UHGV virus genome: UHGV-0214148
Strand: one strand, 5' to 3'
DNA: 64,000 nt
DNA from: a virus
Part shown: positions 3,543 through 60,084 of the stretch, in pieces
Layout: every line of letters starts with the position of its first letter
How positions within the stretch are numbered: position 1 is the first letter of the stretch
The notes under the pieces: generated by a model
Seen by the model: only the letters and a program-made list of their open reading frames with translations
The model's database searches: none
What the model was told of the DNA's origin: nothing
Position numbers and translations under genes: made by a program

Positions 3543-3842
3543 TTAACGATTCTTGGTCGGAAGAAGAAGACGGCGGTTGTGCCAGAATTCAAAGTAGGTC
3601 TCTACCCACTCAGTAACTTCTTCCGCATTTTCAGGATAAGGGTTTTCAATAGACTCGAAACGGCGTTTATTACGCTCGTCAATTTCCAGTTCCATAACAC
3701 GTTTACCGCTCGGGCACGACGTTACGCTCAAGACTTTTCCAACTTGAATAGGTTTACCGTTCTGACCTTTTTTAACAGGCGTCAGATAAATTTCCGGTTC
3801 TAAACGCGGTGTGGTGTTTCGAGTCAGTAATTTGATTTTCAT
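3543..3842 (-). CDS. hypothetical protein
   Basis: 99-aa ORF immediately downstream of the NTPase gene on the same strand. Confidence 0.45.
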   Translation of the reverse strand: MKIKLLTRNTTPRLEPEIYLTPVKKGQNGKPIQVGKVLSVTSCPSGKRVMELEIDERNKRRFESIENPYPENAEEVTEWVETYFEFWHNRRLLLPTKNR

Positions 3843-3940
3843 CGAGCTTTACCTTTATGGAAGAGTCTCGGTCATAAGGTTTGGGTGAACTGTAAAAAGA
3901 CTTTACTATGTAACCCTGACTTATAATCCGAGGTTTTAGA

Positions 3941-4696
3941 ATGAATGTAAATCCACTTGCAGCGTTATCTAGCTTCGCCGCTAAAGCGTCTGCAATCTTA
4001 CCGAAAGGGTTTAGCGGCCCTCAACAAGAGATTGCATTAACCACTTATGACGAGATGTCGGACGTTTCCAAGTGGATGCAACAAGAAAAATTCCTACACT
4101 TTGCGGGAATGTTGGTTATCGTTCCACCTGGGTTTAATACCTACGTGATGGATCATTTGAACCGCTTAGAATCCGTATGGAGTTCACTACAAAACATCTA
4201 TACGGGTATTCTGCTGCCGGTCGATAAACAACTTTCGGCCCTTACACATGATGTGGGGGTACTGTCATTACCGATTGGTTTCCGTTACAAAAACGTTAAT
4301 TTGCCGTTACGTAATGTTAACCCGAAAGACCTGGTTAACTTATTAGCGAAATCGTACACTAATAACGTTATTGACCAGCGACCAATTGAGAAGACGTACC
4401 ACAGCGCGTCTGAGATTGACGTTGCGTTCAATCGTGCTAAAGCCCTGAACGTTGAAATTACGAAACGTTTACGGACGAACATCGACAAGTCAATCGAGTC
4501 CATTCGCACTACGTCGGAAATCTTGTCTGAACAAAACATTCATCCGAATGTAGCAAAAGAACTGACGATGATGTTAGATTTTGCGTCCGATTGGGTGGAG
4601 CTGTTTGGTCTGTTCATGAAACAGGTTAACGAGTTAATCGAATGCCTGAACGTTACTGCCGAACGCTTAAAAGCGCTTAAGGCAAACAAAAAATAA
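3941..4696 (+). CDS. hypothetical protein
   Basis: 251-aa ORF with upstream SD; followed by a bidirectional terminator hairpin. Confidence 0.55.
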   Translation: MNVNPLAALSSFAAKASAILPKGFSGPQQEIALTTYDEMSDVSKWMQQEKFLHFAGMLVIVPPGFNTYVMDHLNRLESVWSSLQNIYTGILLPVDKQLSALTHDVGVLSLPIGFRYKNVNLPLRNVNPKDLVNLLAKSYTNNVIDQRPIEKTYHSASEIDVAFNRAKALNVEITKRLRTNIDKSIESIRTTSEILSEQNIHPNVAKELTMMLDFASDWVELFGLFMKQVNELIECLNVTAERLKALKANKK

Positions 4697-11997: not shown

Positions 11998-12456
11998 TCA
12001 GTACAAACACGATGTCAAGTATTGGTTGTACGAATCGAGTAGTGTCTGACGGTCGGAACGGTAATTCCACAACAAATTATTGAGTTTACGCGATAGGTCA
12101 CGGCTAATCTCCTGGGGCGTTAAAGAGCTTTCGTCAAGAGATAAGCGTTCAGGTACAACATGTAACTTCGGTAACTCATAACGCTCACAAAGTGGAGCCA
12201 GCATTGGTGGGCTCCAGCCACGTTTAACGGCTTGTTGGTTTAAATTTCGGGTGTAGACATAAACGTAGTAAGCATAGGTGTTGACATCCGCAACATACTC
12301 ACGCATTGCATTATTGTCAATTTTCCAATTCACCATTATCGGTGGTGTAGGAGGAAGTTCCAGTGGCCTATAAGCTGGACGTTTAACTTCGTCGCCGTAG
12401 CTATTACTCACCAACCCCATGAACACCATCATGATGAATAACAGCATTTTCATCAA
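11998..12456 (-). CDS. secreted protein with signal peptide (spanin-like candidate)
   Basis: N-terminal MMKMLLFIMMVFMGLVSNSYG is signal-peptide-like; gene abuts the upstream membrane-protein gene. No lipobox Cys. Confidence 0.45.
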   Translation of the reverse strand: MMKMLLFIMMVFMGLVSNSYGDEVKRPAYRPLELPPTPPIMVNWKIDNNAMREYVADVNTYAYYVYVYTRNLNQQAVKRGWSPPMLAPLCERYELPKLHVVPERLSLDESSLTPQEISRDLSRKLNNLLWNYRSDRQTLLDSYNQYLTSCLY

Positions 12457-12960
12457 TCACTCCTTAGAAGACGTTAGCGTCTTTATGATCTCCTGTCGAA
12501 AGCTGTTCGCATTTAAATTGCCAACAGGTCTCGCCGAAGCCTCTTTACGTTGTTCTGGTGTTGAAGCTGGATTAACAGGAGTTTCTGGTTTTGTCGAAGA
12601 CAGATCCTTCGCCGTACCGCTCGCTTTCGATGAATTAAACGTGCTTTCATATGGCGGTTTCTGGCCGAGGCAAACGAAGAGCCTGTCGTATAACTTCCCA
12701 TTATCTTCTTTTAGTTTATCTCGATCTTGTTTCATCTCTTGGTAAGACTGCGACATATAAGTGTCATGAGACTGCACTGCAACGAGCGCGTGAAACTGTT
12801 GTACATAGGCGTAGGAGACGAAGCCAGAATACGACAACAAGATCGTGATGATTAAAGTCATTATCTTGCTTGCTCTTGATACGTTTTCTCCTTCTCCTGG
12901 TTTAAATGCTTCCATTAACATCTGAAGGAAGAACGGAAGCACTTTAAAAAATGAACCCAT
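12457..12960 (-). CDS. membrane-anchored protein with coiled-coil region (i-spanin-like candidate)
   Basis: Hydrophobic segment IMTLIITILLSYSGFVSYAYV followed by charged coiled-coil-like sequence and a Pro/Thr-rich tail. Confidence 0.4.
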   Translation of the reverse strand: MGSFFKVLPFFLQMLMEAFKPGEGENVSRASKIMTLIITILLSYSGFVSYAYVQQFHALVAVQSHDTYMSQSYQEMKQDRDKLKEDNGKLYDRLFVCLGQKPPYESTFNSSKASGTAKDLSSTKPETPVNPASTPEQRKEASARPVGNLNANSFRQEIIKTLTSSKE

Positions 12961-16626: not shown

Positions 16627-17106
16627 TTAAAATAAAGGCAAGTTACGCCATTGTCCTACCGAGTAAAAAGCTTTTGGATGTTTACGGATATACGCTTTCG
16701 CTTCTTCTGGCAACCAACGATCGCCTGCCAGTTTTTGTTGTGCAACAATTACCGCCATCAACAAATAAGGGTTTTTCGCACCGGGGAACTTTGCATTGGT
16801 TTCTAGTGCAATATCCAACATTGACGACCAGCCCAGTAATTTATGTTGCGCCGGTAAACGTTCTTCAATATACATCAGCCATTTCATGATTTGTTTAGGC
16901 TTGTACGGACAGGTATAATTCGCCCAACACACCATGACGAACTTAATAACCTTCGCAATCACCCATACAGGGACAGTCACGAAAAGGCAGAAAATGGCCA
17001 ACTGTGAGGCGGGCGCTTCGACAAAAGTAACCGCTACAAGAACCATACACAGTTCAAGTACCACAAACCAAAAACGCGTTGGATAACGCCAAATGAATTT
17101 TATCAT
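16627..17106 (-). CDS. integral membrane protein
   Basis: Two to three hydrophobic helices in the N-terminal half (FWFVVLELCMVLVAVTFV, LAIFCLFVTVPVWVIAKVIKFVMV). Confidence 0.45.
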   Translation of the reverse strand: MIKFIWRYPTRFWFVVLELCMVLVAVTFVEAPASQLAIFCLFVTVPVWVIAKVIKFVMVCWANYTCPYKPKQIMKWLMYIEERLPAQHKLLGWSSMLDIALETNAKFPGAKNPYLLMAVIVAQQKLAGDRWLPEEAKAYIRKHPKAFYSVGQWRNLPLF

Positions 17107-17172: not shown

Positions 17173-17682
17173 TTAGAAGAACGGCTGATTTGGAATGACA
17201 GCGTACTCTAAAATGAACATATGTTCCGGGGCGTCTTCTTTACGCCAGACTTTGTGTGTCGACACAAGTTTTTCCAGAATCGTTAAGAAACTACGTTGGC
17301 AGTATGTGTTTTCACCAAGCAGTAGATTTTGAAGTTCTACAGTAGCGTCCATATACGCCTGTTTAAAGACTAAACTACGGTTATACTGCCCGGTAAAATT
17401 CCAAAGCAAGACCTTCCCTTCTTCGGTTTCTTTTACCGTTGGCCGTAAACCACAAATCCACAGTAAGGCAAGGTTGACGTTCCAGTCAAACTCTAAACCT
17501 TCTTCTTCGTCAACACCGAATGCTGTGGGTAAAGCATCGTAAAATTCGTGTTTCTCTGCGAATTCTTCATCCGACTTAATCTCGTCTTCGATACTGCTTC
17601 GGACGATACTGTAAACGTCTTTCGCGGTCAATTGTGCGGCTTTTGTAATGCCTTTATACCAATCGGTTACTACGATGCTCAA
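17173..17682 (-). CDS. hypothetical protein
   Basis: 169-aa ORF overlapping the upstream gene by 4 bp. Confidence 0.5.
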   Translation of the reverse strand: MSIVVTDWYKGITKAAQLTAKDVYSIVRSSIEDEIKSDEEFAEKHEFYDALPTAFGVDEEEGLEFDWNVNLALLWICGLRPTVKETEEGKVLLWNFTGQYNRSLVFKQAYMDATVELQNLLLGENTYCQRSFLTILEKLVSTHKVWRKEDAPEHMFILEYAVIPNQPFF

Positions 17683-18377
17683 AGGGTAACTCCTCTATTG
17701 ATTGGAAAACTCGTGTTTATCGTATCCCAAATTCTACTAACTTCCGCCAGTTGAATCTGACGTGGTGTTTTCTTCGCAAACGCAAGCTGACGTGGGGCCG
17801 AGCCCACAACAACAGGCACATCGATTTTCGCGCTATAGAACGCGGCGTCTTTCATAAAGCCTGCCATTTCTCGTTGTGCTGCTCGAGATTTGCTTTTGAT
17901 TCGCGTGTGAGCGCCACTTTCACCCCAGTGGTAAGCTAACGCAACTTCAGCCATGGTGGGCTTGCGTTTGAGTCGTTTGGTTAACCCCTTCTCAAGATGT
18001 TTAACATACGCAGTAGCCAGCAAAACAGCGTTACGCGGATTATACAAATCGGCATTCTGACTAAGACCTAATTCTTTTCCATAAAGCTTTAGCAGATTAC
18101 GCTTGGTACTTGGAAGCATCTGTACCAGGCTGTGTGCTCGTGAGCTTTTGTTGTAAGCCTTGGGATCAAAACGCGATTCACGATAAATCAGTGTAATCAT
18201 CAGCTTGGGATCAACGCCCTGCTTTCGTGAGATTTCCACAATTAACGGGCTGACTTTTTCGAACCGATGTTGGATTTGTGCAAACTCTCGCTGATGCTTA
18301 GAATGTGGCGTTGACGTTGACGCCTGTGCGTTAAACGCGAAAAGTGTTACCAGTAAAAGAAAGAAGATACGAAACAT
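17679..18377 (-). CDS. secreted lytic transglycosylase-like (SLT domain) protein
   Basis: Signal peptide MFRIFFLLLVTLFAFNAQA (start chosen at the ATG preceded by TGGAGAAACAAA), then an SLT-like core RESRFDPKAYNKSSRAHSLVQM and AYVKHL. Confidence 0.55.
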   Translation of the reverse strand: MFRIFFLLLVTLFAFNAQASTSTPHSKHQREFAQIQHRFEKVSPLIVEISRKQGVDPKLMITLIYRESRFDPKAYNKSSRAHSLVQMLPSTKRNLLKLYGKELGLSQNADLYNPRNAVLLATAYVKHLEKGLTKRLKRKPTMAEVALAYHWGESGAHTRIKSKSRAAQREMAGFMKDAAFYSAKIDVPVVVGSAPRQLAFAKKTPRQIQLAEVSRIWDTINTSFPINRGVTL

Positions 18378-18477
18378 TTTGTTTCTCCAGTTGGATTTAT
18401 ACATTTCCGTATTCCGTAAGACGAAATGACGGCGCGGACAGCTAATACTCCTTTGTTGTGTGCCCTAATGATAATAT

Positions 18478-20470: not shown

Positions 20471-20656
20471 CTAATTCCGCCATTCGCATTCGCGTTGACG
20501 CCAAATTGAACCCCACGATAGTTTAATCAGATAAGATGAAACTACCCATAAAATCATCACCACACAAAACATGACATAAAGAACCGCTAGAATGGACATG
20601 AAGCCAAACCCTGCCGCATCCACAATACGACGGAACCAATCAGTTTGCATAAACAA
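20471..20656 (-). CDS. small membrane protein (61 aa)
   Basis: Hydrophobic core GFGFMSILAVLYVMFCVVMILWVVSSYLI; overlaps the 3' end of the ATPase gene by 17 bp. Confidence 0.4.
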   Translation of the reverse strand: MFMQTDWFRRIVDAAGFGFMSILAVLYVMFCVVMILWVVSSYLIKLSWGSIWRQRECEWRN

Positions 20657-24430: not shown

Positions 24431-24820
24431 TCAAAGATCTAATTCGATAGCACCAGCCATCTTGCCCCGTTCTTCTATAACGATCAGATAACGGTCGCGA
24501 GATTTGCTTTTAGCGAGAGTTAAGACAACGGTAGGGTCGCACGTTTTCGTGGTGATAGGAAGAACCTCTCTTGCGACGGAATCGAGCAGAAAGTAATAAC
24601 CTGCGGGACACATTGTGCCGCCATCAGCTTTTACCAGAATATAGCGCCCGTCTGCGCCGACTTCTTGGCAGATTGTTTCACCGACTTCGCAAACTTCAAA
24701 CCCCGGAGGATTGTACTGGTAATCGGTATTGTTGTTTGGGGTTAGCAGTAAATCGTTAACTTGAGTAGATGCTGCTACACTCAGGGAGAAGAAGAATGCT
24801 AAAACGCAGACGAGACGCAT
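24431..24820 (-). CDS. small secreted protein (signal peptide)
   Basis: MRLVCVLAFFFSLSVAAS signal-like N-terminus; 129 aa. Confidence 0.5.
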   Translation of the reverse strand: MRLVCVLAFFFSLSVAASTQVNDLLLTPNNNTDYQYNPPGFEVCEVGETICQEVGADGRYILVKADGGTMCPAGYYFLLDSVAREVLPITTKTCDPTVVLTLAKSKSRDRYLIVIEERGKMAGAIELDL

Positions 24821-24830
24821 GAGTTACTCC

Positions 24831-25241
24831 TTAAATTTTAAGTTTATCCATAGCTACAACGATAGGTTTTTCCGAAGTGTCTAATATCCCTACCATTGGC
24901 ACACCATCTACGACTTCGAAGAATGGTTTGTTATTACCAGAGCATAGACGTTTGTCGTTGTATTCGAGACGCTGAGCCTTCCACGTTTCGAGGTTGAGTA
25001 CGGACATTGGGCTGTCGTAGCACCAGGCACCACCTTGCTCAACGATGAATACGTATCTGCTACCTTTGTATTTAAACAGGCTCTTTGCCTGGCAGTACAA
25101 CCCGTCTATTTCCGTACAATAGAAATCATCGGTGCTATTGACGTACTTAATATTGTCTGGCAACTGTATTGTCTTTGCTGTAGCGTTGACAGAGAACAGA
25201 ACAGCCATTGCAATGAGAAGAGTATTAATGATAGTTTTCAT
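24831..25241 (-). CDS. small secreted protein (signal peptide)
   Basis: MKTIINTLLIAMAVLFSVNATA signal-like N-terminus; 136 aa. Confidence 0.5.
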   Translation of the reverse strand: MKTIINTLLIAMAVLFSVNATAKTIQLPDNIKYVNSTDDFYCTEIDGLYCQAKSLFKYKGSRYVFIVEQGGAWCYDSPMSVLNLETWKAQRLEYNDKRLCSGNNKPFFEVVDGVPMVGILDTSEKPIVVAMDKLKI

Positions 25242-25252
25242 GATAAAAGTCC

Positions 25253-25738
25253 TTAGTATTTAGATTGTTCTACGTACTTCTTAACCAGGTAAGCGAATTC
25301 GGCAACACCGATATCACCGAACCAAATCAGGTAACCGGGGTCGATGTTGTAGTAATAACCGACGAGTTTCTTGGTGTGTGGGTTGTATAGCGTTACGATG
25401 TATTCCCAACCACAAGCGTTAGCTTTACAACCGCCACTTTCAATCCAGATTTTGTTGTTGATGTTTACCGGATACATGTTACCGCCAGGGCCATCCATGT
25501 AACCTTTAGAGCCGAACATACCATCCAGTCCCACAGGGTCTAGTGTTTTATCAACAACGGCTTTAAACGACTTATCGGTATCGTACAAGTCGTTGATGTT
25601 TGGGCACGCATTTGGCTGGCCTTCCCAAGCGTTTCCATCACAGGTAAGCAATTCGTCTACGGAGGCCGCATCTACAGTTGGCGTGGCACCGATAAACAAG
25701 AAAACCAGAAAGAACATCAGTGTATGTAAACGTTTCAT
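25253..25738 (-). CDS. small secreted protein (signal peptide)
   Basis: MKRLHTLMFFLVFLFIGATPTVDA signal-like N-terminus; 161 aa. Confidence 0.5.
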   Translation of the reverse strand: MKRLHTLMFFLVFLFIGATPTVDAASVDELLTCDGNAWEGQPNACPNINDLYDTDKSFKAVVDKTLDPVGLDGMFGSKGYMDGPGGNMYPVNINNKIWIESGGCKANACGWEYIVTLYNPHTKKLVGYYYNIDPGYLIWFGDIGVAEFAYLVKKYVEQSKY

Positions 25739-25756
25739 TGTAACTACTCCTTTAGA

Positions 25757-26149
25757 TTATTCGGCAGGACGATTTAAGGTAACGCGTCCGATTAATTCAG
25801 CGTTGTGAAAGAAGTCCACAGCGGTATAGTTACCAACTGATAGCGGATGGATACTAACTGACATTACTTTTGGTTGTTCGCAGGCGATATCCGTCAGGCG
25901 TTGGTAGACTTGTGCACGAGTGTCAGCAATGAGTAATCCCGTACACGTTTCACCACGCACTAAACGATAAACTTGCAGTTTACCGAAACTGCGCATTAAC
26001 GTAGGCGTCTCATCCGGGTTGATAATCGGTGACTCAGGAGCCGGTTCGTAATAGCGGACATCCGAATCACCGAAAGCATAAGTGCCAGTAATTCCGACCG
26101 CACAGAAAACAATGATAGTATAAAGTATAGTTCTGATATTCATTTTCAC
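25757..26149 (-). CDS. small secreted protein (signal peptide)
   Basis: MKMNIRTILYTIIVFCAVGITGTYA signal-like N-terminus; 130 aa. Confidence 0.5.
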   Translation of the reverse strand: MKMNIRTILYTIIVFCAVGITGTYAFGDSDVRYYEPAPESPIINPDETPTLMRSFGKLQVYRLVRGETCTGLLIADTRAQVYQRLTDIACEQPKVMSVSIHPLSVGNYTAVDFFHNAELIGRVTLNRPAE

Positions 26150-26171
26150 GCACTCTAAAAAAGATTAATAC

Positions 26172-26633
26172 TTATTTGTTAGGACGGGTGTGTCCACAGT
26201 TCTGGAAGAAAGTTTCAGATAAACGATCGCCTTCTACGGTAAAGTTAGCGGCATCGTTACCATTGATACTCACACTGAAAGTTTTGGCATTACCGATAGC
26301 AATAACGAAAGCAACCCAAGCGTGTTCTGCCTTGTCGCTACCGTCCACGGTAGGGATGTTATAGGTTTTGCCGTTTACGACAATATCCATCGTGTTATCT
26401 TCAGCGTTAGTTGCACCTACGGGTTCCCCGTAATACCAAACCATGCGACCGTAAAATTTGCGATTCACAGTTTCTGTGTCACAGTTGATAGACAGTCCGT
26501 TTCCGGCGGTGTCTTCGATTTCGTAAACTGCCTGGCCAGGGTTTTGTATTTGTTCCCAACTATTGATTGCAGCGTATGCGCTATTGAGGCCGAAAGTTAA
26601 AATGGTTATTAAGAATGTGATAAAGGTTTTCAT
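26172..26633 (-). CDS. small secreted protein (signal peptide)
   Basis: MKTFITFLITILTFGLNSAYA signal-like N-terminus; 153 aa. Confidence 0.5.
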   Translation of the reverse strand: MKTFITFLITILTFGLNSAYAAINSWEQIQNPGQAVYEIEDTAGNGLSINCDTETVNRKFYGRMVWYYGEPVGATNAEDNTMDIVVNGKTYNIPTVDGSDKAEHAWVAFVIAIGNAKTFSVSINGNDAANFTVEGDRLSETFFQNCGHTRPNK

Positions 26634-56222: not shown

Positions 56223-56705
56223 ATGCTAAAACGTTTTCTATTTGTTGTAACTGCAGCACTTTCGTTGGCAAGCTGTGCCCTACAACCCACCGCTAACGGT
56301 CAATTCTCGACTGTACCCGTAGAGCCACACGACATGGTTATTTACACCTGTATGGGTGTAGAGCAAGATTTTGTAAATTATAAACCTGTCGTCAATTCGA
56401 CTAACCTAATGTTAGGCTCAGTAACTGTAATCGATACTGGTGCTAACTGGGTAGCCACCTGGCCAAATGGTAAGATTGAGTCACCCCAACTTTATAAAGA
56501 TCTATTAGGTAAAGTTAATGGAAATATCGATCCTATCACGGGACAACGTTACTACCGTGTAAATGGGTTACTTTCAAAAACACCAACATTTGCGTATTCT
56601 ACTTTAGAATATAAAACGGGTGATGGTAAAGGCATTACTTTCTTCCACTGTAAAGAAGGTGTAGCGTCTGACACTGGAACAATGCTCCATCCTGCGGAAC
56701 AATAA
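56223..56705 (+). CDS. putative lipoprotein
   Basis: MLKRFLFVVTAALSLASCALQP carries a lipobox-like LASC after a hydrophobic signal sequence. Confidence 0.5.
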   Translation: MLKRFLFVVTAALSLASCALQPTANGQFSTVPVEPHDMVIYTCMGVEQDFVNYKPVVNSTNLMLGSVTVIDTGANWVATWPNGKIESPQLYKDLLGKVNGNIDPITGQRYYRVNGLLSKTPTFAYSTLEYKTGDGKGITFFHCKEGVASDTGTMLHPAEQ

Positions 56706-56707
56706 AA

Positions 56708-56748
56708 ACTACCCTACTCCTTAACGGGAGTAGGGTATAGTCATTTTA
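56708..56748 (+). terminator. rho-independent terminator
   Basis: ACCCTACTCC-TTAACG-GGAGTAGGGT hairpin followed by a T-rich run. Confidence 0.65.
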
Positions 56749-56820: not shown

Positions 56821-57336
56821 TTAAATCTCGACTAAGGCGCTCCAATCGATTGGTTTTTGCTTAACAACCTTCACAGTACCTCGATTTGGTGACCAGAAAG
56901 TAATGTTAGGCTGGTTACGAACGTCGATGTGTAACCAACTGATGTCACATTCAATAAAGTGAATGAACGGAAACTCGTCAGGGTTAGCAGCGATATAGTC
57001 GTGGACCTGTTTTACGGTGCTATCCAGCAACGTTGCATCAATGGCGTTACCGAATTTGTGTTGACTTCCTGAATCGGCGTAAAGCTGCAACGCACGTTGT
57101 TTATAACTACCGCCCTTAGGCTTTTCTTGATTAATAAAGAAGTCTAAGGTTCTTAGTCCGCGTTGTTGTGCAGCGGTTGAGTTAATGACCATTCTACCGA
57201 AACGATTACGAATCTGCTGTAGCGAAATCATTAACAACGGATTCATAAACCGAATTGCAGAATCGCCGTATTTGGCAATATAAGACTGTGGTACTAACTC
57301 TTTGAGTTTAAAGTTACTCGGATTTGGATGAAACAT
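56821..57336 (-). CDS. peptidase M15-like (VanY/DD-peptidase fold) protein
   Basis: SQHKFGNAIDA fits the S-x-H-x-x-G-x-A-x-D zinc-binding motif, with a later WLHID His/Asp. Confidence 0.5.
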   Translation of the reverse strand: MFHPNPSNFKLKELVPQSYIAKYGDSAIRFMNPLLMISLQQIRNRFGRMVINSTAAQQRGLRTLDFFINQEKPKGGSYKQRALQLYADSGSQHKFGNAIDATLLDSTVKQVHDYIAANPDEFPFIHFIECDISWLHIDVRNQPNITFWSPNRGTVKVVKQKPIDWSALVEI

Positions 57337-57979
57337 CTTCCCTCCCAGACAGAAAAGCCCGTTTGATGTTCAGGTATTTGACATTAACGGGACATTCTGT
57401 GGTGATATCAATACGTTCGTGGTCAGGGATTGCAGGTTCCTTAAACTCGCGAACGAATAAATAGTTTCGATTGTAATCTAACGTACGAAACGCGTTAGTG
57501 CTGTAGGATGGCTTTGCATTAGGATCTGCGTAGGCATCCCAGCCGAATTCAACAACGGCCTTATAAAATGTTTGGCAGATATAAGGCGAGATTTCCAACG
57601 ACTGCATAATACGCAGGAAAGTTAAGTCAGAGAACTCTTTATCGATGAAACGCGAAACGTTACCACCCGGTGTCATGGGATAGCTACGCTCCGTGTTGCA
57701 TTTTTGATAGAGTAAGTCGTGAATACAGGCCGCAGGTGCCCACGGTCCGTCAGGATGGAAAATTCCCTGGAGGTGTTCAGGAATTGACGCTAAATCAGTA
57801 ACGAACCCTTTCGGTGCTGTTAACCACAGTTGTGTGTCAGGCAATACACCCGTTAAATAAACCGCACGGTCTAAGTGTACGTGGTCGTGATATATCTCAC
57901 GTAACGTAAACGGATAATGGTAATCCTCCGTTAATACAAACCACTTATTGTCTAAACGTTTATATTGAAGCTTCTCCAT
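57314..57979 (-). CDS. DUF1353-like protein
   Basis: GFVTDLASIP and AACIHDLLY resemble the TDGAS-P / HD-LY signatures I recall for DUF1353. Start at the internal ATG after GGGAAGG. Confidence 0.4.
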   Translation of the reverse strand: MEKLQYKRLDNKWFVLTEDYHYPFTLREIYHDHVHLDRAVYLTGVLPDTQLWLTAPKGFVTDLASIPEHLQGIFHPDGPWAPAACIHDLLYQKCNTERSYPMTPGGNVSRFIDKEFSDLTFLRIMQSLEISPYICQTFYKAVVEFGWDAYADPNAKPSYSTNAFRTLDYNRNYLFVREFKEPAIPDHERIDITTECPVNVKYLNIKRAFLSGREDVSSKSE

Positions 57980-57994
57980 TACCCACACCTTCCC

Positions 57995-58099
57995 TTATAG
58001 AAACCAGAAAAATTCGTATCCACGCTTTTCGTCTTTACGTTTCCGCCCAGACGTTAACGCTTTCCACAATAGTGCTAAGAGTTTAGCAAACCAGTTCAT
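57995..58099 (-). CDS. small peptide (34 aa) translationally coupled to endolysin
   Basis: My own translation: MNWFAKLLALLWKALTSGRKRKDEKRGYEFFWFL. Its ATG overlaps the endolysin TGA stop (ATGA). Below the ORF-track cutoff. Confidence 0.3.
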   Translation of the reverse strand: MNWFAKLLALLWKALTSGRKRKDEKRGYEFFWFL

Positions 58100-58686
58100 T
58101 TTACTAACCCCGCCTTCACTACATAATCCGGCATTTCCCTGAACACACGTGCATACCAACCGTAAGCGAATTTTTCATTCTTCTTACGCTTTTCGGAGAT
58201 TTCTGTGTAGTAAGTTACCTGGTGTGAGATTAACGCAAAGATTAAAATGCCTAATCCCTCGCCTTTACGGTAATTCAGATAAGCATTCAGAGCACCTAGC
58301 GTTTTAGGCCCCATACCGCCGTCGGTGTCAATATCTGCGTAAAGTTTCCCTTCGTTATTTAAAACGTTGAGAATACGTTGTAACGATTTCACACAATTAA
58401 CGCGGCCAGAGTTAATAGCAAAATCAAACATCCGGTCGGCGAGTATCGGCGAGATAGCGAAAATCTCATCGAGTTTAAGTTTCTTCCACCAACCACGATC
58501 GTAAATGTCAAACGCTTGCGCACGGGTCAGATCTTTCATTCTTCCTTTGTACCCGTATTCGCGTGCAGTTGTCAGTGTTACCCCGTGACAGGTTTCCCCA
58601 CCTTTATCGTCAGGGTCGTTCACGTACCCGCCTTCTAAATCTGTTTTCGAAGCAATAATACCTTCTTTAGTCCAACGTTCGGCCAT
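58096..58686 (-). CDS. endolysin, glycoside hydrolase family 108-like with peptidoglycan-binding domain
   Basis: N-terminal LEGGYVNDPDDKGGETCHGVT matches the GH108 signature EGGY-NDP-D-GG-T; C-terminal half resembles PG_binding_3. Confidence 0.75.
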   Translation of the reverse strand: MAERWTKEGIIASKTDLEGGYVNDPDDKGGETCHGVTLTTAREYGYKGRMKDLTRAQAFDIYDRGWWKKLKLDEIFAISPILADRMFDFAINSGRVNCVKSLQRILNVLNNEGKLYADIDTDGGMGPKTLGALNAYLNYRKGEGLGILIFALISHQVTYYTEISEKRKKNEKFAYGWYARVFREMPDYVVKAGLVK

Positions 58687-58709: not shown

Positions 58710-58745
58710 AAAAAAAGAAAAGAGGGTGGGATTACCCCACCCTGT
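58710..58745 (-). terminator. rho-independent terminator
   Basis: GGGTGGG-ATTA-CCCCACCC hairpin with a T-run on the minus strand after the 58758-59222 stop. Confidence 0.65.
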
Positions 58746-58757
58746 AGTTATTTCTTC

Positions 58758-59222
58758 TTAGCGAGATGGCTTGGCTGGCGCTGCGGCGACAGCCGGTTTA
58801 CGCGCAACGCGTACTGTAAAACCACCGACCCAGGTTAGGCACTCAGGACGGAAGAAAATACCGTGCTCGATTGCACTGCCGTCTAGCGGTAACGCACCAA
58901 CCTGCTCTACCCATACATCGTCTTCTGTAAGGGTTAAGCCATACTGCTCGTTAATTACAGGCAGCAAGTCCGCAGTCGTGGTTGCTGCCTCAACTAACAG
59001 TTTCGGCAATACGTTGAGGAAATACAAACCTGCATCAATGCGGTTATACTGGAACGTTTGCTTATTAACATAACCGAGATTCTTAACCGGCACAACCGTA
59101 ATTTCGGTGTTGTACGTACCGGTACTTACGACGGGCTCACCCAATGTGACTTTGGCGGTGTCGAGCTCGGCGTCTGGGTTAGCCTTTTTAATAAGGTCGA
59201 AGATAGTTTCTTGACTGGTCAT
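58758..59222 (-). CDS. hypothetical protein (possible structural)
   Basis: 154-aa ORF with Ala/Pro-rich C-terminus. Confidence 0.5.
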   Translation of the reverse strand: MTSQETIFDLIKKANPDAELDTAKVTLGEPVVSTGTYNTEITVVPVKNLGYVNKQTFQYNRIDAGLYFLNVLPKLLVEAATTTADLLPVINEQYGLTLTEDDVWVEQVGALPLDGSAIEHGIFFRPECLTWVGGFTVRVARKPAVAAAPAKPSR

Positions 59223-59235
59223 TACTGTAATCCTC

Positions 59236-60084
59236 TTAATCTAAGAATCCCGGTAAGACCGAATTAGTCTTGGCTAATTCAATCTTCGACTTCGGACGAT
59301 CGGTTCCGTTAAAGTGAATTAACAGTTTACCGGTCAGGTTAGAACACATACCGCTTAGGGCGAGTACCAGCACACGCGTGTACTTCGCATTTGCGCCTTC
59401 GAAACCTGCGGTAGGGCCATCGTAGATAACCTTAGCACCGAACAAGTTATTAGCAGCGTTCTTAGGTACGCTTACCCATTTCTCATCAACAACGTTAGTC
59501 AGTTTAGTAGCTAACTCTACTAAGTCTACGGTGCCGTTGATGGTAATTGGATCAAGGTAATCTTTTTCTGCGGTGAAGTCAATTGGGTAAGAATAAACCG
59601 CAGCGTTACCTTTCTTAGTGGACGGATACTCTACCAGGTTTTCTAATTGAGTAACAGGTAACAGTTTAGCCAGATCAATAGGGTCGCGTAGCGTGAGTGT
59701 CACCTCGCCACACCACTCGTAGGATTTCTCGTTAGCGGTAAGCTGATGGGTTTCACCTTCAACTTTCGCATCAACGATATCCGACGGTAGAATATTTAAA
59801 TCGTATTTTGCGTTGATTGCATTAAGCAAATCTGCAGCGGTTACAACACCGTCGTTACCGAATACCAACTCACCTGTTAGGTATTCGGGCAAATTACGAC
59901 GATGGTAAGTCACGGTTAAAGTAGTAGACTCATCGCCTTTGAGTTTAGAAGTCAGAACCACCTGGGTATCAACCCCAGTACCAGTAGGTTCGCCGATATC
60001 AACATCACTGAAAGTCAATGGCGGAACAATATTGTTTTCAGTGTTGATGAGTTTTAGCAGTTTCTGTTTTGACGTAAGAGACAT
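59236..60084 (-). CDS. hypothetical protein (possible structural)
   Basis: 282-aa ORF. Confidence 0.5.
   Translation of the reverse strand: MSLTSKQKLLKLINTENNIVPPLTFSDVDIGEPTGTGVDTQVVLTSKLKGDESTTLTVTYHRRNLPEYLTGELVFGNDGVVTAADLLNAINAKYDLNILPSDIVDAKVEGETHQLTANEKSYEWCGEVTLTLRDPIDLAKLLPVTQLENLVEYPSTKKGNAAVYSYPIDFTAEKDYLDPITINGTVDLVELATKLTNVVDEKWVSVPKNAANNLFGAKVIYDGPTAGFEGANAKYTRVLVLALSGMCSNLTGKLLIHFNGTDRPKSKIELAKTNSVLPGFLD

Follow-up and report, generated by a model that had tools for sequence, protein, structure and literature searches.

We analyzed a cluster of four genes (positions 56821-58686, minus strand) in a 64,000-nt stretch of the virus genome UHGV-0214148, hereafter referred to as the window. 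The four open reading frames (ORFs) that the original prediction had placed in one compact cluster were all confirmed, and they encode a GH108 endolysin, a 34-residue peptide, a DUF1353 protein, and an M15-like protein (Table 1). Tight spacing, overlapping genes, and hairpins on both sides make the cluster a compact operon-like unit. On balance, we take it to be a four-gene, probably late lysis module of a giant phage related to Salmonella phage SPN3US, in which a predicted muramidase, a cationic micro-peptide, a predicted phospholipase A2 (PLA2), and a putative zinc peptidase would contribute to the breakdown of the host envelope.

Table 1 Features of the cluster and other loci of the window discussed in the text (aa, amino acids; TMD, transmembrane domain)
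Feature	Position	Strand	Description	Basis
Virion structural genes	58758-59222 and 59236-60084		Two DUF7941 paralogs upstream of the cluster	PHROG 'virion structural protein'
Upstream terminator-like hairpin	58723..58743	minus	AGGGTGGGGTAATCCCACCCT followed by a T-run	Scan of the sequence
GH108 endolysin	58096..58686	minus	196 aa; homolog of SPN3US gp156	Pfam, PHROG, and PDB matches
Micro-ORF	57995..58099	minus	34 codons; ATG overlaps the endolysin stop	Synteny and codon conservation
DUF1353 protein	57314..57979	minus	221 aa from ATG 57979; homolog of SPN3US gp157	Pfam DUF1353
M15-like protein	56821..57336	minus	171 aa; predicted LAS/M15A-like zinc peptidase, divergent; homolog of SPN3US gp158	
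Downstream terminator-like hairpin	56710..56737		Bidirectional, 11-12 bp stem; ends the cluster and the convergent gene	
Convergent gene	56223-56705	plus	160-aa predicted outer-membrane lipoprotein	Lipobox; PHROG 9559
Tandem genes	24431-26633	minus	Five genes, products of 129-161 aa	
Small TMD protein	20471-20656		61 aa, one strong TMD	
SLT transglycosylase	17679-18404	minus	241 aa	Pfam 4.9e-15
TMD protein	16627-17106		159 aa, two TMDs	
Spanin-like pair	11998-12960	minus	167-aa TMD and coiled-coil protein, then 152-aa protein	Homologs of SPN3US gp204/gp205

Protein searches identified the phage as an uncultured relative of SPN3US in the phiKZ-related lineage, with protein identities of 58-78% (58-62% for the DUF1353 protein, 78% for the M15-like protein, and approximately 61% for the endolysin). 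The cluster genes are orthologous to and syntenic with SPN3US gp156, gp157, and gp158, and this conservation in SPN3US-like phages (Seoulvirus) means that the pairing of two peptidoglycan hydrolases, which had been considered unusual, is not peculiar to the window. A megablast search against GenBank phages found no close relative, the sole match being 408 bp at 75% identity to SPAsTU/STsAS. Copies that were 94-98% identical were found in IMG/VR contigs of 151-225 kb and in Logan assemblies, and the phage is known from metagenomes only.

The first gene encodes a protein that matched the Pfam families Glyco_hydro_108 (E 1.6e-23, 83.5 bits, cut-off 21.2) and PG_binding_3 (E 3.2e-16, 59.7 bits, cut-off 24.6) as well as the PHROG 315 'endolysin' family (E 4.1e-43), and that carries an EGGY motif at residues 18-21. 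It also matched PDB entries 6V40 (E 1.1e-43, query residues 6-179) and 6V3Z (E 6.1e-43), which are TtsA, the muramidase of typhoid-toxin secretion, and its S. Enteritidis homolog Sen1395 (PMC6996933). A hydropathy scan, in which a TMD was called at a Kyte-Doolittle mean of at least 1.6 over a 19-residue window, found no TMD, no N-terminal hydrophobic segment, and no signal or signal-arrest-release (SAR) sequence in this protein. These matches agree with its earlier assignment as an endolysin-type muramidase and identify gene 1, as far as homology can tell, as a soluble GH108 muramidase of the type of TtsA and N4 gp61. Since it carries no export signal, it would need a membrane lesion made by another factor. 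The best match of the endolysin among GenBank phages was not from SPN3US, whose endolysin is 60.7% identical, but from the 152-kb non-jumbo Cronobacter phage CR9 (64.8%), which hints at endolysin exchange between unrelated enterobacterial phages.

The third gene had a program-called start at GTG 57988, but the ATG at 57979 (MEKLQYK...) is likelier because it follows a GGGAAGG Shine-Dalgarno sequence and gives a protein that matches its nearest homolog of 221 aa. The description of the product as DUF1353-like holds insofar as the Pfam DUF1353 domain is present (E 1.2e-14, 54.1 bits, cut-off 22.5, residues 56-145), and an hhalign comparison with the DUF1353 protein of Salmonella phage Segz_1 gave a probability of 98.8% (E 5e-17). 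What has changed is the reading of the domain. TtaP, a 125-aa DUF1353 protein distantly related to the group XIV secreted PLA2s, was shown by experiment in 2024 to be a phospholipase A2 with the residues H70, D71, and D85, and the D85A mutation abolishes its activity (PMC11525133). In an alignment of 27 DUF1353 homologs, H90, D91, Y94, D121, and a GFVTDxASIP loop were invariant, and H90, D91, and D121 correspond to the three TtaP residues. The AlphaFold2 model of the window protein (predicted local distance difference test score, pLDDT, 90.5) contains a PLA2-like helical core, and its best fold match was a fungal PLA2. Approximately 55 N-terminal and 70 C-terminal residues, rich in beta structure, are additional to this core. 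In an approximate profile alignment to the Streptomyces violaceoruber PLA2 sequence (E 1.4e-4), the HD of the window protein fell on the HD of that PLA2, and D121 aligned with its distal Asp. The secretion signal and disulfide cysteines typical of group XIV were not found, as the hydropathy scan detected no signal peptide or N-terminal hydrophobic segment and no cysteine was invariant in the 27-homolog alignment. By its sequence, the protein thus belongs in the TtaP class and not in group XIV PLA2 proper, and its catalytic residues and modeled fold point to a phospholipase A2 of that class.

This prediction is at odds with the label 'tail assembly chaperone', which is attached to DUF1353 in PHROG 1158, RefSeq, and GenBank. 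If the label were right, the protein would assist tail or tail-fiber assembly and have nothing to do with lipids or lysis, and the families frequently found near DUF1353 genes do include DUF4376 and tail-fiber families. Lysis cassettes, however, commonly abut tail-fiber genes, which would explain both these neighbors and the propagation of the label. The His-Asp...Asp set of PLA2s is what stays invariant in the family, the modeled fold is most similar to that of a PLA2, and the family member TtaP has proven PLA2 activity (PMC11525133). Furthermore, the DUF1353 gene of the window follows the endolysin gene and is not in the tail tube or tape-measure region, as would be expected of a tail chaperone, and the literature searched offered no experimental support for the label. 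A chaperone function is thus very unlikely, and we regard the label as a mislabeling of the protein.

In several unrelated phages outside this clade, DUF1353 genes are repeatedly found in lysis cassettes, and the endolysins of these cassettes are of different types. The gene order is lysozyme, a protein with two TMDs, an inner-membrane spanin (i-spanin)-like protein, and DUF1353 in Segz_1; M15 peptidase, proline-rich lipoprotein, and DUF1353 in Caulobacter phage DMCA; and M15 endolysin, three small genes, DUF1353, and holin in Fusobacterium phage FNU_1P. Fourteen IMG/VR loci have an endolysin (Amidase_3 or M15) at position -2 of DUF1353, with Phage_holin_4_1 at -1 in ten of them. Neighbors were counted as the genes within two of DUF1353 in 31 non-redundant IMG/VR loci. 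Pfam searches of these 92 neighbors returned holins (five), M15_4 (three), and SLT, lysozyme, Amidase_2, and Amidase_3 (one each), and PHROG searches returned five holins and endolysin families with 4, 3, 3, and 3 members. Together, these gene orders make an association between DUF1353 and lysis suggestive for phage contexts only and for few independent lineages. A different neighborhood was observed in bacterial chromosomes, where Peptidase_C14 (caspase-like) genes flank DUF1353 in 8 of 65 loci, with ORF calling that was crude in the high-GC contigs. The PLA2 fold of these bacterial homologs may act as a membrane-destroying effector in cell suicide or defense.

The enzyme could also act on membranes before lysis. 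In chimalliviruses, a membrane vesicle (the early phage infection, or EPI, vesicle) first encloses the injected DNA, and a PLA2-like enzyme might serve the phage-nucleus life cycle by dismantling that vesicle or by remodeling host membranes. The phage of the window belongs to the phiKZ-related giant phage lineage, and a DUF1353 protein without a signal peptide would be cytoplasmic, both of which fit such a role. The gene is nevertheless co-oriented and tightly packed with the endolysin gene, and DUF1353 is also part of the lysis cassettes of small phages that form no nucleus, making a function confined to the phage nucleus highly improbable.

Between the endolysin and DUF1353 genes lies the micro-ORF, encoding a 34-aa peptide (MNWFAKLLALLWKALTSGRKRKDEKRGYEFFWFL) with a net charge of +5, compared to +6 to +7 in its relatives. 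It consists of a hydrophobic and aromatic N-terminal 16-mer, an RKRK cluster, and an aromatic C-terminus. The endolysin stop and the micro-ORF start overlap as AAATGA, with a purine-rich GAAGG upstream. Synteny identified equivalent ORFs with the same overlap in SPN3US (MKQNWFAALMKAIWRALVFAARRKRNDPPSNSA), SPAsTU, phiEaH2 (MKSNWFITLMRAVGRALLAAMRRKRHDKPESGFKA), and Asesino, consistent with the translational coupling that had been proposed, and those of phiEaH2 and Asesino carry coding sequence annotations (hypothetical protein). The NWF...RRKR pattern recurs in three related genera, and N, W, F, L, A, L, and R/K-K mark the positions that do not vary. Distant relatives were found by synteny only; an exhaustive phmmer search of the 34-mer against 1.84 billion representatives recovered its own cluster alone, a 34-aa protein 97% identical. 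Across six genomes (83-97% identical), the length is constant and 9 of 12 variable codons are purely synonymous, with three residue changes (A9V, S17F, and Y28Q). The synonymous excess and the constant length are the signature of a translated, constrained gene, and on this evidence gene 2 is genuine, encoding a cationic peptide of 34 residues that is translated in a manner coupled to endolysin termination.

It is unlikely that the micro-ORF has no peptide function, acting instead as a coupling or spacer ORF or as a C-terminal extension of the endolysin made by a -1 slip on A-AAA-TGA. The AAATGA overlap is admittedly the most conserved feature of the micro-ORF, the SPN3US version shares only some 30% sequence identity with it, and the A AAA TGA sequence in the window and in Erskinevirus permits re-pairing of tRNA-Lys in the -1 frame. 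The C AAA TGA of SPN3US, on the other hand, permits no perfect -1 re-pairing, and the codon and length conservation among close relatives and the NWF...AL...R/K-K pattern kept across genera also speak for a functional peptide. Machina-type phages, moreover, swap in a TMD peptide at this place and have not lost the slot.

This slot is always filled by tiny ORFs in the clade, and these are of two kinds. It holds one cationic ORF in the window group, two cationic ORFs in Erskinevirus (the NWF type and a ...GFFKLLRAIF.RRV type), and, in SPN3US, these two types together with a 30-aa ORF that has a single TMD (MQYDNDDWPKGLMPILLGLMVLTMLVRYMT). Machina, Huxley, and Caitlin have one ORF of 38-52 aa, in which an acidic DDDPPP stretch is followed by a TMD, and Wellington-type phages have one 37-aa TMD ORF. 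At least one TMD is a feature of holins, and the ORFs of the TMD type in SPN3US, Machina, and Wellington-type relatives have one. This pattern of replacement suggests that the slot ORFs may be interchangeable small membrane-active components. At 28-52 aa, the tiny ORFs of SPN3US-like phages are mostly unannotated in RefSeq. Three of them occupy an unannotated 'gap' of 290 bp in SPN3US (3703-3993 of its locus), and in phiEaH2 and Asesino-like loci the slot is at 3821-3993.

The fourth gene starts 23 nt ahead of the DUF1353 stop, giving a 23-nt overlap, and lies behind a GGGAGG sequence. Its product matched PHROG 894 'endolysin' (E 3.6e-28). The LAS zinc site, H93-x6-D100 and H136-x-D138, and the residues R62 and S91 do not vary among 24 homologs, and the model of the protein (pLDDT 94.1) has the Hedgehog/DD-peptidase fold. 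These ligands and this fold uphold the original M15-like assignment, whereas the Pfam M15 models do not: no Pfam family matched at E<=1 and hence there was no match to Peptidase_M15_3, M15_4, or VanY. A precomputed PF08291 hit was present in one homolog only (P0047), and hhalign comparison to an annotated M15 endolysin gave a probability of 6.8%. Because every Pfam M15 model failed, the protein is placed in a divergent subfamily and called M15-like, and we predict that it is a zinc peptidase of the LAS group, one that lacks a signal peptide. The gene is not beside DUF1353 in phiEaH2, Asesino, or Machina, none of which were among the matches listed for the M15-like protein, and comparison of these genomes indicates that it is dispensable in the clade. 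Its product may act either in lysis, as a second endolysin, or as an entry lysin.

An entry role for gene 4 could be part of a mixed cluster, in which the GH108 enzyme, perhaps with the micro-ORF, serves lysis, and the DUF1353 and M15-like proteins are low-copy tail or baseplate enzymes that digest outer-membrane lipid and peptidoglycan at genome delivery. Such a division would suit the location of the cluster directly downstream of the DUF7941 virion structural paralogs, the presence of compact M15-like relatives among the head and tail genes of the Vibrio podophages VP5 and K385, and the DUF1353-M15 pair without an adjacent endolysin in Phobos and CR5. A terminator-like hairpin nonetheless separates the cluster from the structural genes, and in small phages DUF1353 adjoins holins, endolysins, and spanin-like genes. 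In the SPN3US virion proteome, tailed virions gave 2-3 spectra of gp158 and tailless particles gave none (PMC5105663), in favor of an entry role, but the same group later judged this signal probably non-specific (PMC5694885). Neither gp156 nor gp157 is mentioned in the main texts of the two studies (PMC5105663 and PMC5694885) or in two supplements of the first. Overall, we consider a mixed cluster rather unlikely.

If the cluster is instead a lysis module throughout, its products might act as follows. The muramidase would cleave the glycan strands of peptidoglycan after something else has made a lesion in the membrane. The cationic micro-peptide would bind membranes and help to permeabilize them. 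It could do so on the cytoplasmic side, timed like a holin or antiholin, or act on the outer membrane as disruptins do. The PLA2 would be synthesized in the cytoplasm, where low Ca2+ or a lack of access might keep it harmless. Upon a breach of the envelope, it would hydrolyze phospholipids, both those of the inner membrane and those in the outer membrane's inner leaflet. Its action would speed or complete the collapse of the envelope alongside a spanin-like pair encoded elsewhere. The zinc peptidase would complement the muramidase by cutting peptide stems or cross-links in peptidoglycan; instead, or in addition, it could be a low-copy tail-associated lysin.

The spanin-like pair, approximately 45 kb from the cluster, had been proposed as a candidate before. 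SPN3US gp204 contains a TMD together with helical and proline-rich regions, and the first protein of the window pair also has i-spanin-like features, a TMD and a coiled coil. In relatives, the second protein has a lipobox (LLTGC in SPN3US, LLVGC in phiEaH2, LLTAC in Machina, and LLAAC in pEa_SNUABM_6). The proposal therefore stands as far as homology to an i-spanin-like/lipoprotein pair is concerned, but the lipobox cysteine has been lost in the window, where the signal peptide contains no cysteine (MKMLLFIMMVFMGLVSNSYG followed by DE). The second protein may be either a non-lipidated outer-membrane spanin (o-spanin)-like protein or a defective one. Two other assignments were considered and rejected: DUF1353 as a substitute for missing spanins, because the relatives have a spanin-like pair, and the micro-ORF itself as the holin, because its product has no TMD.

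Several findings weigh against a lysis module. The hydropathy scan found no TMD-bearing holin within or next to the cluster, confirming an earlier observation. The micro-peptide could not span a membrane by the threshold used, as no 19-residue window reaches it and two Lys residues break the 16-residue hydrophobic stretch. Nor does the peptide stand out as amphipathic, as had been claimed, since its best 16-residue hydrophobic moment of 0.47 was reached by 831 of 2000 shuffles; it is distinguished by its positive charge instead. Relatives already possess a spanin-like pair, so that a PLA2 and a peptide fill no known gap. No phage DUF1353 protein has a known phenotype, whether enzymatic or in lysis, and deletion of TtaP in S. 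Typhi had no envelope or secretion phenotype (PMC11525133). The genomic association has exceptions as well, with DUF1353 located after thymidine kinase in the DNA-metabolism region of Campylobacter phage CPX, among unknown neighbors in Klebsiella phage Eowyn and Pseudomonas phage Lu11, and without any lysis-gene neighbor in the 65 non-redundant bacterial chromosomal loci. Moreover, many of the IMG/VR loci with lysis genes come from a single related group, leaving only a handful of independent lineages. Lastly, virion association of the M15-like protein had been named at the outset as an outcome that would speak against a part in lysis, and the gp158 spectra go some way in that direction, tempered by their later reappraisal.

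The surroundings of the cluster and other loci of the window contain further features. The upstream hairpin is between a DUF7941 virion-protein gene and the endolysin gene, approximately 36 nt ahead of the endolysin start codon, and the cluster is probably transcribed by read-through or attenuation from the late structural transcript. At the other end, the predicted lipoprotein gene runs toward the cluster, and the bidirectional terminator-like hairpin would serve both. The product contains the lipobox LSLASC with Ala at +2 and belongs to PHROG 9559 (function unknown). A unimolecular spanin was ruled out for this protein, as it has no C-terminal TMD, and it may be a superinfection-exclusion protein. 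Genes of similar size are found in the same place and orientation in SPN3US (gp159), phiEaH2 (gp078), Asesino (gp174), and Machina (gp166), a comparison of size, position, and orientation. Elsewhere in the window, the SLT transglycosylase is a third peptidoglycan hydrolase and has an N-terminal signal- or SAR-like hydrophobic stretch. Genes for the two small TMD proteins in Table 1 are near it, and together these genes could represent an alternative or additional lysis/holin set. The five tandem genes each encode a product with an N-terminal signal peptide, and the one that was checked belongs to PHROG 8968 (function unknown).

The current scheme of lysis in Gram-negative hosts comprises holin, endolysin, and spanin, with the disruptin as a rare alternative to the spanin. 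As a joint proposal that is tentative, and possible rather than probable, DUF1353 may represent an unrecognized class of phage lysis protein, a PLA2 that is set free at lysis, degrades envelope phospholipids, and is widespread in phages of diderm hosts; TtsA-TtaP may be a domesticated phage module of muramidase and phospholipase; and micro-proteins of 28-52 aa, either cationic or with a single TMD, may serve in SPN3US-like modules as interchangeable, minimal permeabilizers resembling holins or disruptins. If this is true, a lipid-hydrolyzing enzyme as a recurrent member of lysis cassettes would constitute a new functional class, and there would be a concrete hypothesis for TtaP, whose activity is known but for which no biological role in typhoid-toxin release was found (PMC11525133). 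The lysis system of SPN3US-like phages is otherwise undescribed, and the cassette of phiKZ was not defined until 2026 (PMC12894885). A set of muramidase, peptidase, PLA2, and cationic peptide would also be of practical interest for the engineering of enzybiotics that have to pass the outer membrane. Public SPN3US-like genomes already contain the cluster, partly mis-annotated; what is new is its reading as a cassette of muramidase, micro-protein, and phospholipase, with or without the peptidase, that mirrors TtsA/TtaP.

Several known systems resemble the cluster in part. Mycobacteriophages encode LysB, a lipid-ester hydrolase, next to a peptidoglycan hydrolase and use it in an extra lysis step on the outer lipid layer. 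LysB differs in its serine esterase/cutinase fold, its mycolyl-arabinogalactan substrate, and the envelope of its host. The group XIV secreted PLA2s of Streptomyces violaceoruber (1LWB) and Tuber borchii (4AUP) differ in that the window protein has no signal peptide and has large extra domains, and their disulfide cysteines, which TtaP also lacks (PMC11525133), are not conserved in it. A likeness to the micro-peptide in size, charge, and position is shown by the disruptin gp28 of coliphage phiKT, a small cationic TMD-less peptide of a lysis cassette (56 aa, +7, compared to 34 aa, +5; bioRxiv 10.1101/515445). That phage has no spanins, unlike the clade of the window with its spanin-like pair.

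Among giant phages, phiKZ has a lysis cassette of gp141 (i-spanin), gp141.1 (o-spanin), gp142 (class III holin), gp143 (regulator), and gp144 (endolysin). As in the window, this cluster follows a block of virion-structural paralogs, and its soluble endolysin depends on a holin (PMC12894885), comparable to the lesion that the window enzyme would require. The phiKZ endolysin is, however, a transglycosylase and not a GH108 enzyme, the holin and spanins are adjacent to it, unlike in the window, and no PLA2 or micro-peptide has been described there. The gp156-gp157-gp158 genes of SPN3US (61% identity for the endolysin, 58% for the DUF1353 protein, and 78% for the M15-like protein) and their counterparts in phiEaH2, Asesino, Machina, Phobos, and CR5 are orthologous to the window genes and syntenic with them. 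In SPN3US, three tiny ORFs occupy the 290-bp gap, compared to one in 108 bp in the window. Erskinevirus and Machinavirus differ further in having no M15-like gene beside DUF1353. Within the literature searched, no function has been published for these genes in SPN3US-like phages.

The arrangement most like the window outside of phages is the TtsA-TtaP typhoid-toxin islet of S. Typhi, in which a GH108 muramidase and a DUF1353 protein are likewise encoded together (PMC11525133). The islet serves non-lytic toxin release, and a micro-ORF or M15 gene has not been reported in it. TtsA is specific for LD-cross-linked polar peptidoglycan (PMC6996933), and TtaP has 125 aa compared to 221 aa in the phage protein, which also has an insertion of approximately 15 residues between HD and the distal Asp. 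The two pairs nonetheless agree in that neither protein has a signal peptide, in that TtsA, as predicted for the window endolysin, requires a separate membrane perturbation (PMC11525133), and in that the H/D/D catalytic set of TtaP is kept in the DUF1353 protein of the window.

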